64,000 nt of DNA, from positions 64,571 through 128,570 of IMG/VR virus record IMGVR_UViG_3300031972_002122; one strand, given 5' to 3'. The notes below the pieces were generated by a model. The model did no database searches, was not told the DNA's origin, and worked only from the letters and a program-made list of their open reading frames with translations. Positions 34,679-55,941 of the stretch are shown one piece after another. Positions within the stretch are counted from its first letter, which is position 1. The number at the start of each line of letters is the position of its first letter. Position numbers and translations under genes: made by a program. The stretch comes from a virus.

Positions 34679-34706
34679 CATACTTATGAACGAAGAGATA
34701 CGAAAA

Positions 34707-34904: not shown

Positions 34905-34973
34905 ATGGAAAATAGAGAAGACATAGAATATTATTATAGCATTACCAATGGGTGTGCTATCGTTGTGGTGTAA
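34905..34973 (+). CDS. Tyr-run uORF (MENREDIEYYYSITNGCAIVVV) reading into tRNA-Tyr
   Basis: TAT TAT TAT at 34929-34937, 12 nt before the tRNA. Confidence 0.7.
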   Translation: MENREDIEYYYSITNGCAIVVV

Positions 34974-35298: not shown

Positions 35299-35877
35299 AT
35301 GGAAAGATTAAAACTTAAAAAGTTATTAGACTCTGGTAAAAGTACTAGAGAGATTGCAGAGTTAATTGGAAGGGGGCAGACGACTGTTAGATATTGGATT
35401 AAGAAGCATGGGTTGCGATGTAAGTATCATGAGATTAATCGTCAACAGCGGATAAGTGATATTTGTGAAGCTGTTGCCAAGTCCACCTCATACTCAGAGG
35501 TATGTAGGAAGTTGAAAATTCCTCGTTCTGGAAATTCATATCAGAATATGAGATCGGTGATTGAGAGATTGAGTTTAGATGTCTCCCATTTTACAGGGCA
35601 GCGAAAATATCTAGAGTCTATAAAATTAACTCCATATGATGTATTAATATATGATCGGTTGGATGGTAGGCGGGAACGTACTATAGTGTTGCGTAACGCG
35701 TTAACTGAACTTGGTGTTGATGTGTGTAGATGTAGCCTGTGTGGGTTAGATTCTTGGTTGGGAAAACCACTTGGAATGCATATTGATCATATAGATGGTG
35801 ATAGATTAAATAATATTCGTGATAATTTGAGAATTTTATGTCCAAATTGTCACAATCAAATAACGTATAACAAATGA
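35299..35877 (+). CDS. HNH homing endonuclease with N-terminal HTH
   Basis: CSLCG, HIDHIDGDRLNN..DNLRILCPNCH. Confidence 0.9.
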   Translation: MERLKLKKLLDSGKSTREIAELIGRGQTTVRYWIKKHGLRCKYHEINRQQRISDICEAVAKSTSYSEVCRKLKIPRSGNSYQNMRSVIERLSLDVSHFTGQRKYLESIKLTPYDVLIYDRLDGRRERTIVLRNALTELGVDVCRCSLCGLDSWLGKPLGMHIDHIDGDRLNNIRDNLRILCPNCHNQITYNK

Positions 35878-36576: not shown

Positions 36577-36651
36577 GCGGCACACGCATAAGAGGTGGTG
36601 CACCTGCCTTCCAAGCAGGAATTAGATTCGGTTCGATCCCGAAGTGCCGCA
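36577..36651 (+). tRNA. tRNA-Gly(TCC)
   Basis: GCGGCAC/GTGCCGC; CCTGC-CTTCCAA-GCAGG. Confidence 0.9.
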
Positions 36652-36724
36652 CAAATTGATCATCGCTAGGAGATGCATCGGTTGAGAATCAGTTAGGCTG
36701 CTCGATTTGACTGGCGATGAACTT

Positions 36725-36875: not shown

Positions 36876-36947
36876 GTCTCTAAAGCATTTATGGATGATG
36901 TCCACCTTTGTACCGTGGGGAACGGGATTCGATTTCTCGTAGAGACT
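36876..36947 (+). tRNA. tRNA, probably Thr(TGT)
   Basis: GTCTCTA/TAGAGAC; CCACC-TTTGTAC-CGTGG with one mismatch; anticodon register somewhat ambiguous. Confidence 0.65.
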
Positions 36948-36997
36948 CAACAATTCGATTCCAGTGTTTGATTCGTTTTTTGTATACTTATATATGT

Positions 36998-37654
36998 ATG
37001 AAATGGACAGAAACTGAATTGAACGAAGTGATTAATCTTATCAAAAGTGGTAAGACTTATGGTGAAATATCTAACATTGTGGGTAGAAGTAAATCTTCTA
37101 TCAAAAATAAACTAGGGCGTAGCAACGAAAATTATAAAAAGTATGTTAAGTGCGACGTGCTTTTATGTATTCAGTGTGATAATGTTATTAAAAATTTTGG
37201 TATTAAATTTTGCTCTAGATCATGTGCTACTACTTATAACAATTTACTACGAGGAAAAAATCCACGTAAGTGTAAGTGTTGTGGTGGTGAATATTTCGGA
37301 AGAGCTAAAAAATACTGCAGTATTTATTGCTTTCATAAAAGTCAGTGGATGGCAATCGTGAATTTAATTGAATCTGGTGATACTAGCCTTTCTAATCGAC
37401 GTTATAAAAAATATTTAATTTATAAATATGGTGAACAATGTATGGAATGCGGTTGGGATAAAATCAATCCATATAGTGGAAATATACCAATTGAATTAGA
37501 ACATATCGATGGTAATTCTAATAATAACTCTTTGGATAACTTAAAATTATTATGTCCTAATTGTCATTCACTCACACCAACATACAAAGCATTAAATATT
37601 GGTAATGGTCGACATAACCGCATGGTGAGATATAAATCTGGTAAGAGTTTTTAA
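36998..37654 (+). CDS. HNH endonuclease with HTH and Cys-rich repeats
   Basis: FCSRSC, YCSIYC, ELEHIDGNSNNN..NLKLLCPNCHSLT; start moved to MKWTE because the longer ORF overlaps a tRNA. Confidence 0.9.
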   Translation: MKWTETELNEVINLIKSGKTYGEISNIVGRSKSSIKNKLGRSNENYKKYVKCDVLLCIQCDNVIKNFGIKFCSRSCATTYNNLLRGKNPRKCKCCGGEYFGRAKKYCSIYCFHKSQWMAIVNLIESGDTSLSNRRYKKYLIYKYGEQCMECGWDKINPYSGNIPIELEHIDGNSNNNSLDNLKLLCPNCHSLTPTYKALNIGNGRHNRMVRYKSGKSF

Positions 37655-38022: not shown

Positions 38023-38092
38023 AGCACAAGTGCGCGGGACACAGGACGGACTCATATTCTGTCTTCGCTCGGATCGTTACCGAGTTGTGCTA
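38023..38092 (+). tRNA. tRNA(CAT), Met or Ile2, with non-canonical D and T loops
   Basis: AGCACAA/TTGTGCT; ACGGA-CTCATAT-TCTGT; CTCGG-ATCGTTA-CCGAG. Confidence 0.7.
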
Positions 38093-38107
38093 CTGATTAG
38101 AATAAAA

Positions 38108-38206
38108 ATGAAAGAAAGAACTGAAATATCGAGTAGTAGTTCCAGATACTGGAAGGTGAACCTAGCAGGGTCTAGGACTGGATTGCTAATCCATGGGGTC
38201 GGGTAA
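38108..38206 (+). CDS. Ser-run uORF (MKERTEISSSSSRYW...) reading into tRNA-Ser
   Basis: TCG AGT AGT AGT TCC at 38129-38143, 7 nt before the tRNA. Confidence 0.72.
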   Translation: MKERTEISSSSSRYWKVNLAGSRTGLLIHGVG

Positions 38207-38238
38207 AACTGACTGGGCTTCGATTGCTCCTCCTTCCG
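38151..38238 (+). tRNA. tRNA-Ser(GCT)
   Basis: GGAAGG/CCTTCC-G; TGGA-TTGCTAA-TCCA; long variable arm. Confidence 0.82.
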
Positions 38239-38245
38239 CTTAATT

Positions 38246-38335
38246 GGTAAGTTAAGCAGTCCCATGGAGGGGCGACTAGTCTTGAAAACTAGGTAGCAGG
38301 TCATGCTGCTCGGGGGTCGGTTCCTCAACTTACCG
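38246..38335 (+). tRNA. tRNA-Ser(TGA)
   Basis: GGTAAGT/ACTTACC-G; CTAGT-CTTGAAA-ACTAG; long variable arm. Confidence 0.85.
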
Positions 38336-38343
38336 CAATTTAT

Positions 38344-38417
38344 GGTCAAGTGGCTGAGTGGATGTAGGCATCTGATTGCAAGTCAGGTTTACGGGGGTTC
38401 GAATCCCTCCTTGACCT
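38344..38417 (+). tRNA. tRNA-Cys(GCA)
   Basis: GGTCAAG/CTTGACC-T; TCTGA-TTGCAAG-TCAGG. Confidence 0.92.
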
Positions 38418-38430
38418 CAACGAAAAAATT

Positions 38431-38484
38431 ATGAAAGTAATAAATACATACAATCGATTACGACTGCTACTCTTACCTGAGTAG
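38431..38484 (+). CDS. Leu-run leader peptide (MKVINTYNRLRLLLLPE)
   Basis: TTA CGA CTG CTA CTC TTA; followed by a hairpin and four tRNA-Leu genes. Confidence 0.78.
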   Translation: MKVINTYNRLRLLLLPE

Positions 38485-38521
38485 CCTCACCACTTCAAAA
38501 TTCAGTGGGGGGCAAATCTAT

Positions 38522-38595
38522 GCCCCCATGGTGGAACTGGAATACACGTTTGATTAAGGATCAAAAGCTTGCGAGTTCGAATCTCGCTGGGGGTA
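38522..38595 (+). tRNA. tRNA-Leu(AAG), short variable loop
   Basis: GCCCCCA/TGGGGGT-A; TTTGA-TTAAGGA-TCAAA. Confidence 0.85.
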
Positions 38596-38605
38596 CAAAA
38601 AGAAA

Positions 38606-38666
38606 CCGATCGGGTACACGGTATACCCGATTGGGTACACGGTATACCCGATTGGGTATATCCGAT
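38606..38666. repeat. 21-bp tandem repeat (~2.9 copies), each copy a hairpin
   Basis: CCGATYGGGTACACGGTATAC x2 plus a partial third copy. Confidence 0.85.
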
Positions 38667-38749
38667 GACTCTGTGATGAAATGGAAGACATGCCCGGCTC
38701 AAAATCGGGTGCCTAGCTAGGCGTGTGGGTTCGAATCCCACTAGGGTCA
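38667..38749 (+). tRNA. tRNA-Leu(CAA)
   Basis: GACTCTG/TAGGGTC; CCCGG-CTCAAAA-TCGGG; variable arm. Confidence 0.9.
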
Positions 38750-38754
38750 CAAAT

Positions 38755-38832
38755 ACCTCCGTGGGCAAATGGTAAAGTCCGCAGTCTTAGACACTGTAAT
38801 CGTAGTTGCTGGTTCGACTCCAGTCGGAGGTA
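38755..38832 (+). tRNA. tRNA-Leu(TAG)
   Basis: ACCTCCG/CGGAGGT; GCAGT-CTTAGAC-ACTGT. Confidence 0.9.
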
Positions 38833-38840
38833 CAATTAAT

Positions 38841-38914
38841 AGTCCCGTAGCCCAACCGGAAGAGGCATCAGGTTTAAACTCTGTTCAGTGTGGGTTCGAC
38901 TCCCATCGGGACTA
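38841..38914 (+). tRNA. tRNA-Leu(TAA), short variable loop
   Basis: AGTCCCG/CGGGACT; CAGG-TTTAAAC-TCTG. Confidence 0.85.
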
Positions 38915-38937
38915 CTATTTTTTATATACTTATTAGT

Positions 38938-39669
38938 ATGTGTACATGTATTGATATAAACGAGCTCCAATTGATTGAGGATGGATCACAACCAGACTTC
39001 AATCTGGATAATGAATTTGCCGAAGCTAATAGAAAATACTTCAAGGGCATGCTTAAGAAGATTCCTATGGAATATAAACACCTGACTGGTAAACTAGGGT
39101 TAGTTAAAGCTAAAGTGCGTAGAGATAGCTCTAAACGGATCGTGAAAGCATTCCCAGTAGTACTGCAGATGACTGATCAATTCAATTACACCAGAGAACA
39201 ATTCTTGAGTACATTCTTACATGAACTTTGCCACTTATTCATGCTGCAGGATGCTGGTAAGTATTCGTGGAGTGGTGGGTATCATGGTAGAGAATGGCAG
39301 AAACTAGCTGATACCGTATCTAAGAAATCTGGTGTACCTATAACTAAGGACGAACATACTGGTAAATATGACACTAAAGACCTACCATCACCAGTAGTAG
39401 CGTTTGCCAAATTTAGTGGTGGGCATATTAGTATCGCATATACAACCAAAAGTATATGGAGTCGGCGAGATGATGAGTATATAGATTGGTTAACCGCCAC
39501 CGCTAAAGGGAAGCAGTGGGTGGTCTTCACAACCAGAGATGGTCGAATAACAAACTTCGCTGCAAAATCTATAAAGAGACCCACGTTCTATAAAATCGAT
39601 CAGGACATTGTTACTGACATGATGAAGAACAAATCCGAAGAAGTTATATTAACCAATAATCATGTATAG
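38938..39669 (+). CDS. SprT-like zinc metalloprotease
   Basis: FAEANRKYF, TFLHELCH (HExxH), YHGREW. Confidence 0.8.
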   Translation: MCTCIDINELQLIEDGSQPDFNLDNEFAEANRKYFKGMLKKIPMEYKHLTGKLGLVKAKVRRDSSKRIVKAFPVVLQMTDQFNYTREQFLSTFLHELCHLFMLQDAGKYSWSGGYHGREWQKLADTVSKKSGVPITKDEHTGKYDTKDLPSPVVAFAKFSGGHISIAYTTKSIWSRRDDEYIDWLTATAKGKQWVVFTTRDGRITNFAAKSIKRPTFYKIDQDIVTDMMKNKSEEVILTNNHV

Positions 39670-42617: not shown

Positions 42618-42752
42618 ATGAAAGATTTGATGAACATAGAACGTGTGGACGAACCAGCCGAGGAGACATGGCGCGGTCGTCTAAATGGACTAGGACACCA
42701 GACTTTCAATCTGGACGATGCGGGTTCGATCCCCGTCCGCGCTACCAAGTAG
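42618..42752 (+). CDS. Glu-rich uORF (MKDLMNIERVDEPAEET...) reading through tRNA-Glu
   Basis: GAA, GAA, GAG GAG within the last 10 codons before the tRNA. Confidence 0.68.
   Translation: MKDLMNIERVDEPAEETWRGRLNGLGHQTFNLDDAGSIPVRATK
42670..42747 (+). tRNA. tRNA-Glu(TTC)
   Basis: GGCGCGG/CCGCGCT-A-CCA; CCAGA-CTTTCAA-TCTGG. Confidence 0.93.
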
Positions 42753-42944: not shown

Positions 42945-43016
42945 ATGAACACATACACAATCATACAACATCAACCGCAGCCCGTAGGGGCTATTCATCA
43001 ACATAGATTGGTGTAG
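42945..43016 (+). CDS. Gln/His/Pro leader peptide (MNTYTIIQHQPQPVGAIHQHRLV)
   Basis: 4 Gln, 3 His, 2 Pro; followed by a hairpin and tRNA-Pro, -His, -Gln. Confidence 0.8.
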   Translation: MNTYTIIQHQPQPVGAIHQHRLV

Positions 43017-48539: not shown

Positions 48540-48542
48540 ATT

Positions 48543-48621
48543 GGCGAGTACCAGCCCATCCTGATAAGATGGAGAACTGTAATTGGTTGTTGAAAATGTG
48601 GGTTCAAATCCCATCTCGCCA
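48543..48621 (+). tRNA. atypical tRNA-Ile(GAT) lacking a normal D arm
   Basis: GGCGAG/CTCGCC-A; CCATC-CTGATAA-GATGG; GTGGG-TTCAAAT-CCCAT. Confidence 0.7.
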
Positions 48622-48637
48622 ACTTAACTGTTAAAAT

Positions 48638-51046: not shown

Positions 51047-51202
51047 CGTAGCTCAGATATCGTTTGAAACGGAAGCTGCCAATTACTAACGAGTAATGTA
51101 GTCCTGAGTAGCACACGCGGAGTGTACATTAAACGTGTGAGATTTGGTTAGAGCATTATTCTGATAGAATAAGGGTCGGTGGTTCGAATCCACCCGTCGC
51201 AA
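51042..51202 (+). tRNA. tRNA-Ile(GAT) with ~85-nt structured insertion in the D loop
   Basis: GGTGACG-TA-GCTC-AG[insert]TTGGTTA-GAGC-A-TTATT-CTGATAG-AATAA...GGTGG-TTCGAAT-CCACC-CGTCGC. Confidence 0.75.
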
Positions 51203-51208
51203 CGAATT

Positions 51209-53720: not shown

Positions 53721-53750
53721 ATGAAGTATAAACGAAAATATAAACAGTAA
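53721..53750 (+). CDS. Lys-rich leader peptide (MKYKRKYKQ)
   Basis: AAG plus 3x AAA in 9 codons; followed by a hairpin and three tRNA-Lys genes. Confidence 0.72.
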   Translation: MKYKRKYKQ

Positions 53751-53783
53751 TTAACTTCACCAGCGAGTCTGGGGGAGTTAAAT

Positions 53784-53856
53784 ACCCCCAATGCTCGTAT
53801 GGTAGAGCACCTGACTTTTAATCAGGGTATAGTGAGTTCGAATCTCACTGGGGGTA
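53784..53856 (+). tRNA. tRNA-Lys(TTT)
   Basis: ACCCCCA/TGGGGGT; CCTGA-CTTTTAA-TCAGG. Confidence 0.92.
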
Positions 53857-53866
53857 CATATGATAT

Positions 53867-53947: not shown

Positions 53948-54038
53948 ACCCCCATAGCTGAATTGGAAGCAGTACTGTAAGGGAACAAGCAACGCACTTT
54001 TAATGCGTGGGATGTGAGTTCGAGTCTCACTGGGGGTA
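53948..54038 (+). tRNA. tRNA-Lys(TTT) with enlarged D loop
   Basis: ACCCCCA/TGGGGGT; ACGCA-CTTTTAA-TGCGT; ~17 extra nt in the D loop. Confidence 0.8.
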
Positions 54039-54093
54039 CTAAAATATATTACGTAATTTGTATAATGTTGAGAATTTTTTATATTTGCTTTAT

Positions 54094-55278: not shown

Positions 55279-55728
55279 ATGACAAATTCAGAGATAATAA
55301 GTTTAGGTATTAACATTGGCGTTTTTGACGAAACAGTAACAGATTTTGAATTACAATATATACTATTCACTCATTATATGGAGAGGATGGCTGTTATGGG
55401 CTTATTATCTAGTTCTGGTGGGGAATATGAAATATCAGATACTGGTAAGGCGGTGATTGAATTTCTAGTTAGTAATGAGTATACACTAAATGCTGATGAT
55501 TTGAAAATGTTTATGATGAACGACGTTGAACAATATGTACAATTAATACCTGTTATTGACGCGTTCGTGGAGTCTATTATACTCCTACACACTGACGGTG
55601 AAGATGTCTTAATTAATCGTCTTATAGACTTAGGTGCTAGGCGTGATCCTGATGAGATAGATGCATTGATTGAGATGCATAGCGAGATGGTGGAGCAGGT
55701 AAAGACCAAGTATAATATTACTGAATAA
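55279..55728 (+). CDS. hypothetical protein
   Basis: ORF track. Confidence 0.6.
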   Translation: MTNSEIISLGINIGVFDETVTDFELQYILFTHYMERMAVMGLLSSSGGEYEISDTGKAVIEFLVSNEYTLNADDLKMFMMNDVEQYVQLIPVIDAFVESIILLHTDGEDVLINRLIDLGARRDPDEIDALIEMHSEMVEQVKTKYNITE

Positions 55729-55731
55729 CAT

Positions 55732-55804
55732 GCTCCCTTGGCTCAACGGATAGAGTATCCGACTTCGAATCGGAGGATTATAGGTTCGAATCCTATAGGG
55801 AGTA
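55732..55804 (+). tRNA. tRNA-Arg(TCG)
   Basis: GCTCCCT/AGGGAGT; TCCGA-CTTCGAA-TCGGA. Confidence 0.93.
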
Positions 55805-55941
55805 CAAATAGGTTCTACCACATCCAGACGTGGACGGTAGATTATAAAAATAATTCCATAAAAGTTTGTTAATACCAATATTTTTTATATATTAGTGTTC
55901 TAAAAATTTATTGCATTTTTTATTTCATTTAAAACAACAAT

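Follow-up and report, generated by a model that had tools for sequence, protein, structure and literature searches.

Leader-peptide attenuators of enterobacteria, including leuL (Leu_leader), trpL, hisL and pheL, control biosynthetic enzymes through a short open reading frame (ORF) that carries a run of cognate codons, which in leuL comprises four consecutive Leu codons. In the ermC and cat leaders, drug-induced ribosome stalling remodels a downstream hairpin, a mode of control termed translational attenuation. The reasons why phages carry tRNA genes, and the use to which they put them, have been under debate for decades, and to our knowledge the regulation of these genes is essentially unexplored. 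Synthetic RNase P riboswitches sequester the 5' region of a pre-tRNA and thereby control its cleavage by RNase P in E. coli (Ender et al., RNA 2022, PMC8925977). No work describing phage tRNA genes under leader-peptide control came up in our search of the literature, subscription-only papers and supplements lying outside that search; PMC3082878 concerns pheL and pheA only. Here, we analyzed a 64,000-nucleotide stretch of viral DNA (hereafter the window; positions 64,571 to 128,570 of the IMG/VR record IMGVR_UViG_3300031972_002122), which makes up the latter half of one 128,570-bp contig, and focused on a leucine-rich leader mini-ORF and two competing hairpins, P1 and P2, that precede a cluster of four tRNA-Leu genes. 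All coordinates refer to the window, and genome-wide counts cover the 128.6-kb genome.

Our analysis confirmed that this arrangement of a Leu-rich ORF, P1, P2 and four tRNA-Leu genes is real and beyond chance. The interpretation that had been attached to it by an earlier reading of the sequence (the original prediction), namely a leader peptide coupled to an anti-acceptor hairpin, is partly supported as a whole. The explanation that we favor, to which we give slightly less than an even chance, is that the locus encodes a ribosome-gated RNA switch that would act on the folding and maturation of a tRNA and not on transcription termination. The features on which this proposal is built are the following:

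38419..38430, + strand: A-rich 12-nt start region AACGAAAAAATT, read from the sequence, without a Shine-Dalgarno (SD) motif
38431..38484, + strand: leader mini-ORF MKVINTYNRLRLLLLPE plus TAG, 17 codons, with the ATG at 38431 and the TAG at 38482-38484
38468..38483, + strand: P0, a 5-bp hairpin (UACUC/GAGUA) present in minimum-energy folds, which is built from the final Leu codons together with the ORF end and abuts P1
38484..38513, + strand: P1, protector hairpin, with arms GCCTCACCACT (38484-38494) and AGTGGGGGGC (38504-38513), -14.7 kcal/mol
38508..38527, + strand: P2, anti-acceptor hairpin, GGGGGCA (38508-38514) paired with TGCCCCC (38521-38527), -15.0 kcal/mol
38522-38596, + strand: tRNA-Leu(AAG), 75 nt (ARAGORN; Rfam tRNA, 56.7 bits)
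38667-38750, + strand: tRNA-Leu(CAA) (ARAGORN; Rfam tRNA, 48.1 bits)
38755-38833, + strand: tRNA-Leu(TAG) (ARAGORN; Rfam tRNA, 49.8 bits)
38841-38915, + strand: tRNA-Leu(TAA) (ARAGORN; Rfam tRNA, 49.7 bits)

The leader mini-ORF contains five Leu codons (TTA 38458, CTG 38464, CTA 38467, CTC 38470 and TTA 38473; span 38458-38475), four of which are consecutive, as well as two CGA Arg codons (38455 and 38461). Its stop codon and tRNA-Leu(AAG) are 37 nt apart, and the genes downstream form the only tRNA-Leu cluster of the genome. Among ATG ORFs of 6-40 codons, a LLLL run is found in 2 of the 866 encoded on the + strand, one of them being the leader itself, and in 1 of the 894 encoded on the - strand, and the probability of at least five Leu in the 16 residues that follow the start is 0.0053 at the Leu usage of this phage (7.6%). 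These figures bear out the claim that a Leu-rich ORF stands ahead of four tRNA-Leu genes, each element being located where it had been placed. The same reading had also stressed that the leader uses four different Leu codons; the codons are present as described, but this diversity is not significant, as at least four distinct codons among five Leu are expected with a probability of 0.41 from the codon usage of the phage, and the notion that it reflects selection was rejected. The resemblance to leuL that had been proposed is limited to the run of four Leu, with no match to any Rfam leader family and no terminator. In terms of start context, the A fraction at positions -15 to -1 of the leader is 0.53, as compared to 0.455 for 111 long genes and 0.312 for the 866 random short ORFs.

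The leader leads directly into P1, as G38484 is the final base of its stop codon. P1 comprises 10 bp with a bulged A38489 and a 9-nt loop; its 5' arm resembles the 5' strand of the tRNA acceptor stem and its 3' arm the 3' strand. P2 comprises 7 bp with a 6-nt loop and is formed by GGGGGCA and its exact reverse complement TGCCCCC at the 5' end of tRNA-Leu(AAG), which begins at 38522. Because P1 overlaps P2 at 38508-38513 and P2 in turn overlaps the acceptor stem at 38522-38527, each helix excludes the next one, with P2 incompatible with both the lower part of P1 and the acceptor stem of the tRNA.

To assess these helices, the 40-nt spacer of each locus was compared with 5000 composition-preserving shuffles. 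At the Leu locus, 3 of the 5000 shuffles reached the energy of the hairpin, 3 reached that of the duplex with the tRNA 5' strand, and none reached both. The corresponding counts were 16, 31 and 0 for the spacer ahead of a tRNA-Lys gene, and 113, 169 and 3 for the spacer ahead of a tRNA-Pro gene. The duplex between the Leu spacer and its own acceptor 5' strand (-16.3 kcal/mol) ranked first among the 22 tRNA loci whose spacers measure 40 nt or more, both against the 5' strands of other tRNAs and against the other spacers, with the Lys locus ranking second and the Pro locus second to third. Thus, a hairpin starting at the stop codon and a 3' arm able to pair instead with the 5' end of tRNA-Leu(AAG), the two structural claims made for this locus, both stand.

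We also considered what else the leader could be. Neither P1 nor P2 was retained as an intrinsic terminator, since a U run comes after neither of them (P1 continues into AAATCTAT, P2 into ATGGTGG), and no terminator-like site was detected on the + strand between the leader ORF and the tRNA (38431-38521). Rfam searches returned only tRNA families at the gathering score and nothing within 38419-38521 at E<=1; given this result and the 9-nt loop of P1, a tRNA pseudogene or minihelix was discarded as well. A promoter inside the leader was likewise rejected, as it contains only a partial ATAAATA at 38440 and not the motif ATA[TC]TTAT that is enriched in this genome.

Folding predictions indicate that the competing helices are closely balanced. 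In the minimum-energy fold of the free RNA (38431-38600), P1 coexists with a cloverleaf that has 7 acceptor pairs. Masking in silico up to 14 nt past the stop codon, the stretch that a terminating ribosome would cover, led to a fold in which P2 is formed, no acceptor pairs remain and 6 of the 7 bases of the tRNA 5' strand are paired upstream, while a mask ending at the stop codon, representing a ribosome held further upstream, retained P1 and the cloverleaf. The full-length folds have energies of -40.6 kcal/mol without P2 and -40.3 kcal/mol with P2, with a path barrier of ~15.5 kcal/mol, and in the equilibrium ensemble the tRNA 5' strand is paired upstream at 0.31 and within the acceptor stem at 0.62. 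Formation of P2 releases the 5' arm of P1 (GCCUC), which is then predicted to pair with the 3' acceptor strand of the tRNA, generating a strand-swapped fold in which the arms of the hairpin trade partners with the strands of the acceptor stem.

Based on these predictions, we infer that the leader is translated, that the ribosome footprint is large enough to reach into P1, and that the outcome is exerted on RNase P in a given direction. In this mechanism, progress of the ribosome along the 17 codons would be set by the decoding speed of the five Leu codons. With a footprint extending ~12-15 nt downstream of the A site, the textbook value, a ribosome at the TAG would cover approximately 38482-38496, that is, the entire 5' arm of P1. 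The G-rich 3' arm would then be free to pair with the first bases of tRNA-Leu(AAG) as P2, and an RNA in this state would have no acceptor stem and would not be a proper substrate for RNase P. A ribosome stalled on the Leu codons or otherwise short of the stop codon would instead let P1 keep the G-rich arm, so that the cloverleaf could fold and the tRNA could be matured. Poor decoding of Leu codons would in this way yield more phage tRNA-Leu, closing a negative feedback loop. Since no terminator is present, the locus is not a classical attenuator, and since there is no promoter motif nearby either, folding and 5' maturation of tRNA-Leu(AAG) would be the most economical output. In its most complete form, which we consider possible but hold a little more loosely, the proposal is that of a natural ribosome-gated switch in which translation of a mini-gene made of cognate codons would switch a pre-tRNA back and forth between a cloverleaf that can be processed and a strand-swapped decoy of equal energy, allowing the phage to gauge decoding capacity for each amino acid and to mature its own tRNAs on demand.

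The relationship between ORF composition and the identity of the next tRNA holds genome-wide. This was evaluated in an unselected set that includes every first-in-frame ATG ORF starting 18-160 nt before a tRNA (n = 17), counting only codons located upstream of the tRNA and permuting the tRNA labels. Across the 17 ORFs, 34 residues match the next tRNA (permutation p = 1.2e-4 for the count and 5e-6 for the summed binomial score), and p remains at 0.0015 in the same permutation without the Leu ORF. In addition to the Leu leader, the codon-matched ORFs are:

34905-34973: mini-ORF with YYY, before tRNA-Tyr
38108-38206: mini-ORF with SSSSS, before two tRNA-Ser
42618-42752: mini-ORF with four Glu, before tRNA-Glu
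42945-43016: mini-ORF MNTYTIIQHQPQPVGAIHQHRLV with 2 Pro, 3 His and 4 Gln, before Pro-His-Gln tRNAs
53721-53750: mini-ORF MKYKRKYKQ with four Lys, before the tRNA-Lys at 53784

The single short ORF of the genome with SSSSS is the one that precedes the tRNA-Ser pair, and one of the two YYY ORFs precedes tRNA-Tyr. An MK start is shared by 4 of the 6 codon-matched ORFs (Tyr, Ser, Leu, Glu, Pro/His/Gln and Lys), compared to 8.3% of random short ORFs (p = 6e-4), and A makes up 40-67% of the 15 nt upstream of these six ORFs, compared to 45.5% in long genes and 31% in the random set. A hairpin of the kind present at the Leu locus is missing from the Tyr, Ser and Glu ORFs, whose reading frames continue into the tRNA, an overlap that could serve the same purpose directly.

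At the Leu, Lys and Pro loci the stop codon abuts the hairpin, with stop-to-tRNA spacers of 37, 36 and 33 nt, respectively, and among the 22 loci these three show the cleanest flip of the fold when the upstream sequence grows from 25 to 40 nt. The original prediction had described the same design at all three. This holds in every tested respect for the Lys locus (53721-53857), where the ORF, the hairpin, the anti-acceptor pairing and the flip upon masking are all like those of the Leu locus, and where the strand swap is also present, albeit less balanced (-39.5 vs. -44.2). For the Pro/His/Gln locus it holds only in part: a codon-matched ORF and a hairpin at its stop codon are present, but so is an extra CUUAC/GUAAG hairpin, and the response to masking is reversed. 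The 3' arm of the hairpin varies with the acceptor across the three paralogous loci (GGGGGCA/TGCCCCC, TGGGGG/CCCCCA and TTCCC/GGGGA), which is covariation among paralogues and not among orthologues.

All four tRNAs of the Leu cluster have a Leu anticodon, A73 and a 3-bp D stem, and tRNA-Leu(AAG) in particular combines A73, G37, an A34 anticodon, the 3-bp D stem and a 5-nt variable loop. Bacterial tRNA-Leu species usually have A73 and a long variable arm (class II). In this cluster, a stem-bearing long variable arm is found only in the CAA tRNA, while the variable regions of the AAG, TAG and TAA tRNAs measure 5, 10 and 4 nt, respectively, so that Leu identity of the four tRNAs is likely rather than certain. 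The CAA and TAG genes are separated by 4 nt and the TAG and TAA genes by 7 nt. The 70-nt spacer between the first and second genes harbors a further structured element:

38606..38660, + strand: tandem palindromic repeat, between tRNA-Leu(AAG) and tRNA-Leu(CAA)

This repeat folds at -31.8 kcal/mol (z -4.64; 0 of 200 shuffles as stable) and can adopt several alternative strong hairpins. Its 17-mer GGGTACACGGTATACCC occurs in two copies within 38606-38660 and nowhere else in the window. Complementarity was also observed between the ACCCGATT motif of the repeat and positions 38703-38710 in the tRNA-Leu(CAA) anticodon arm.

A number of results weigh against the proposed switch and should be considered together. 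Even without a ribosome, P2 (together with the top of P1) is predicted to be the minimum-energy state of the nascent chain while it extends from 38528 to 38592, until the 3' strand of the tRNA emerges; the default state, and with it the polarity of control, is therefore uncertain, and this polarity is the weakest point of the model. The strand-swapped fold could trap the RNA regardless of translation, and the default product could be this clamped fold, with a role of the ribosome that is subtler than in the simple model. Capture of the tRNA 5' strand by upstream sequence is also predicted at loci that have no codon-matched mini-ORF, such as tRNA-Arg at 55732 (0.84) and tRNA-Ile at 51136 (0.71), and the Pro locus responds in the opposite way to the same masks. 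P2 contacts only the first tRNA-Leu (AAG) and leaves the other three untouched. All structures discussed here are nearest-neighbor predictions that ignore tRNA tertiary contacts and base modifications. No SD was found ahead of the leader, although its absence is not telling because many genes of this phage also lack one. Positions 38494-38511 are 72% identical (18 nt) to the segment of tRNA-Leu(AAG) that runs from the T-loop through the 3' acceptor strand (38576-38593), a likeness that allows for an origin by partial tRNA duplication, in which case the complementarity would have come free. Finally, inspection by eye of the 24 ATG ORFs in the tRNA array of phiEa21-4, a cultured phage with 26 tRNAs, showed no run of at least three residues matching the next tRNA; therefore, the design is not general.

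Some of these points could be accommodated if the Leu mini-ORF were a real decoding sensor with an output other than clamping of the acceptor, such as later pausing or termination, an influence on how stable the whole Leu cluster is or on the order of its processing, or an action exerted via the repeat hairpins at 38606-38660, with the anti-acceptor complementarity being a by-product of partial duplication of the tRNA 3' end. We consider this explanation rather unlikely, even though it fits a strong link between ORF composition and tRNA identity at a locus where P2 reaches one of four tRNAs, the 72% identity between 38494-38511 and 38576-38593, the unusually stable, multi-state repeat right after the first tRNA, and the codon-matched Tyr, Ser and Glu ORFs that run into the tRNA with no hairpin. 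It does not account for the Lys hairpin, which follows the same strand logic without any T-loop likeness, for the finding that none of 5000 shuffles combines hairpin and duplex at either the Leu or the Lys locus, or for stop codons abutting the hairpin at three loci with spacers of 37, 36 and 33 nt. Moreover, a balance of P1 and P2 within 0.3 kcal/mol is not expected of a decaying relic, and this fine balance argues for maintenance and against partial duplication. It has also to be considered whether the hairpin is a ribosome-independent element for pre-tRNA processing or folding (a nuclease site, a spacer stabilizer or a folding decoy) next to an incidental ORF. The stability of the region (38419-38600 folds at -47.5 kcal/mol, z -2.79), the leader without SD, the bistability of the RNA without a ribosome and the 5'-strand capture predicted at loci with no mini-ORF are all compatible with such a role. 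However, it leaves unexplained that one of the two genomic LLLL runs lies directly before Leu tRNAs, and that the Lys and Pro/His/Gln hairpins also come after codon-matched ORFs with abutting stop codons, which is why we regard it as unlikely.

The mosaic organization of the tRNA blocks, with HNH endonuclease genes between tRNAs, together with the non-significant diversity of the Leu codons, would be in line with chance or with non-functional debris of tRNA gene rearrangement. This is nevertheless improbable in the face of the permutation results (p = 1.2e-4 and 5e-6), the lack of shuffles with both features (0 of 5000), the duplex ranking first of 22 loci and the lack of any tRNA-like Rfam match in 38419-38521 at E<=1. 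We give hardly any credence to a direct RNA-RNA sensor of the T-box type, in which the Leu codons would pair with tRNA anticodons without translation. Several cognate codons do stand beside a structured switch, yet the leader has no match to a T-box or any other cis-regulatory Rfam family at E<=1, its codons share their frame with an ATG whose start context is gene-like, this frame closes at a stop codon that abuts the hairpin, and no element was seen that could read the 3' end of a tRNA.

The contig that carries this locus has a G+C content of 39%, and almost all of its long ORFs lie on the + strand. Its gene set includes a large terminase, a portal, a major head protein and a tail sheath, and it therefore belongs to a myovirus-like phage. 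The sequencing runs that contain the contig are seawater metagenomes, pointing to an uncultured marine phage. Among three DNA runs from one seawater study, only the probable source run covers the Leu locus; the other two contribute identical low-depth fragments, and no variant letters appeared. Judged by the terminase, Microcystis phage Mel-JY01 (51%) and Flavobacterium phage immuto (49%) are the closest phages in culture; they carry 1 and 3 tRNAs, respectively, and have no comparable leader. No close relative was identified among 50,697 deposited phage records: a blastn search with 38200-39000 against INPHARED returned only generic tRNA matches, and a tblastn search with a neighboring protein gave one distant match. 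Searches of IMG/VR with exact tRNA patterns yielded 0 matches in one case and, in the other, 1 chance match inside a coding region without a tRNA. The SprT-like protein encoded next to the cluster, used alone or as a 5-sequence alignment, led to no confirmed locus in IMG/VR, JGI metagenomes or GTDB contigs, and a PurZ-like neighbor led to no relative locus in IMG/VR. A search with the large terminase recovered only four short contigs of 4-26 kb.

The Leu locus is embedded in a dense tRNA region. Default ARAGORN predicts 26 tRNA genes within 34.9-56.6 kb of the window, and six further ones were recovered with relaxed settings or Rfam: Gly(TCC) at 36577-36652, Met(CAT) at 38023, Ser(GCT) at 38151, Ser(TGA) at 38251, Ile(GAT) at 51136-51203 and a tRNA-like match at 48542-48622; the Met/Ser/Ser stretch (38023-38336) is one that default ARAGORN missed. 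HNH endonuclease genes and small ORFs are scattered among the tRNAs, such that the tRNA blocks are mosaic. The immediate neighbors of the locus are:

38344..38418, + strand: tRNA-Cys(GCA) (ARAGORN; Rfam tRNA, 53.9 bits), upstream neighbor of the leader
38926..38933, + strand: promoter-like motif ATACTTAT, identified by 7-mer enrichment, which heads the next unit and marks the end of the tRNA block
38938-39669, + strand: SprT-like gene (Pfam PF10263), directly 3' of the tRNA-Leu cluster

The ATG of the leader lies 12 nt past the 3' end of tRNA-Cys, which places the leader inside a polycistronic tRNA transcript. The promoter-like motif ATA[TC]TTAT has 39 genomic copies, and sequences upstream of genes contain an excess of related 7-mers (TATTTAT, 16 observed vs. 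2.4 expected; ATACTTA, 9 vs. 1.7). Within the tRNA region it is located at 34680, 35287, 36984, 38926, 41987, 42551, 46356 and 56997. Because it is absent between 36984 and 38926, the Leu locus is an internal element of a longer transcript that also includes tRNA-Met, two tRNA-Ser and tRNA-Cys. Two HNH endonuclease genes of the tRNA block, at 35299-35877 and 36908-37654, each have the promoter-like ATACTTAT ahead of them.

Other genes and tRNAs of the region also deserve mention. For the SprT-like protein, only four homologues were found among 5.8 billion proteins, with 41-55% identity to the query, and these are encoded on contigs of 16,457, 7,275, 6,904 and 1,378 nt. The protein encoded at 45030-46178 matches PHROG 1211, annotated as '2-aminooxy adenylosuccinate synthetase' (E 1.6e-43), a family that includes PurZ-type enzymes of phages with modified adenine. 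A 149-codon ORF within 55279-55805 stops 3 nt before tRNA-Arg(TCG), and predictions pair the 5' strand of this tRNA with the terminal part of the ORF (P = 0.84), in a duplex of -10.3 kcal/mol that ranks first of 22. ARAGORN placed a tRNA-Leu(TAA) at 53948-54039, its anticodon being at position 31. On visual inspection, however, it has the same acceptor stem as tRNA-Lys(TTT) at 53784 and a CTTTTAA loop, and the Rfam match is limited to 53974-54038 (26 bits). It may represent a tRNA of the Lys type whose D region carries an insertion.

If the proposed switch operates, phages would monitor decoding capacity for individual amino acids, which could help them to counter a host that depletes particular tRNAs or cleaves them, and the locus would represent a previously undescribed post-transcriptional control of viral tRNA genes. 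The element is self-contained within ~170 nt and, if it works, would provide a compact natural part for control at the tRNA level.

Compared with the closest described systems, the Leu locus shares with leader-peptide attenuators a short ORF with a run of cognate codons and mutually exclusive helices chosen by the position of the ribosome, the latter as predicted here by masking. It differs from them in that their ORF is followed by a terminator, which the Leu locus lacks along with any Rfam leader match, and in that the genes downstream are four phage tRNAs instead of biosynthetic enzymes, with the acceptor stem of a tRNA as the last helix of the series. The signal would be decoding capacity and not amino-acid supply alone, and the leader-peptide principle would thus extend from amino-acid operons to tRNA genes. 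T-box riboswitches also sense the state of a specific tRNA via codon-like triplets and alternative helices, but they bind the tRNA directly, contain a conserved T-box sequence with no such match at the Leu locus, and control aminoacyl-tRNA synthetase or amino-acid genes. As in ermC and cat, the position of the ribosome on the leader would expose or hide a functional site without transcription termination; in those leaders the hidden site is a ribosome-binding site, whereas here it would be the 5' acceptor strand of a tRNA, and stalling would come from slow decoding of cognate codons. With the synthetic RNase P riboswitches, the locus has in common a 5' region of a pre-tRNA that is either sequestered in a hairpin or accessible (PMC8925977). 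This feature is present at the Leu locus, where P2 (-15.0 kcal/mol) competes with P1 (-14.7 kcal/mol) and the masked fold has 0 acceptor pairs. The synthetic devices are designed and driven by theophylline, whereas the Leu locus is natural and would be driven by the ribosome; an output based on RNA folding and access of RNase P instead of termination has so far been only synthetic, as far as the literature searched goes. Taken together, the Leu locus would be a form of ribosome-mediated attenuation with a new target, the tRNA acceptor, and a new proposed output.

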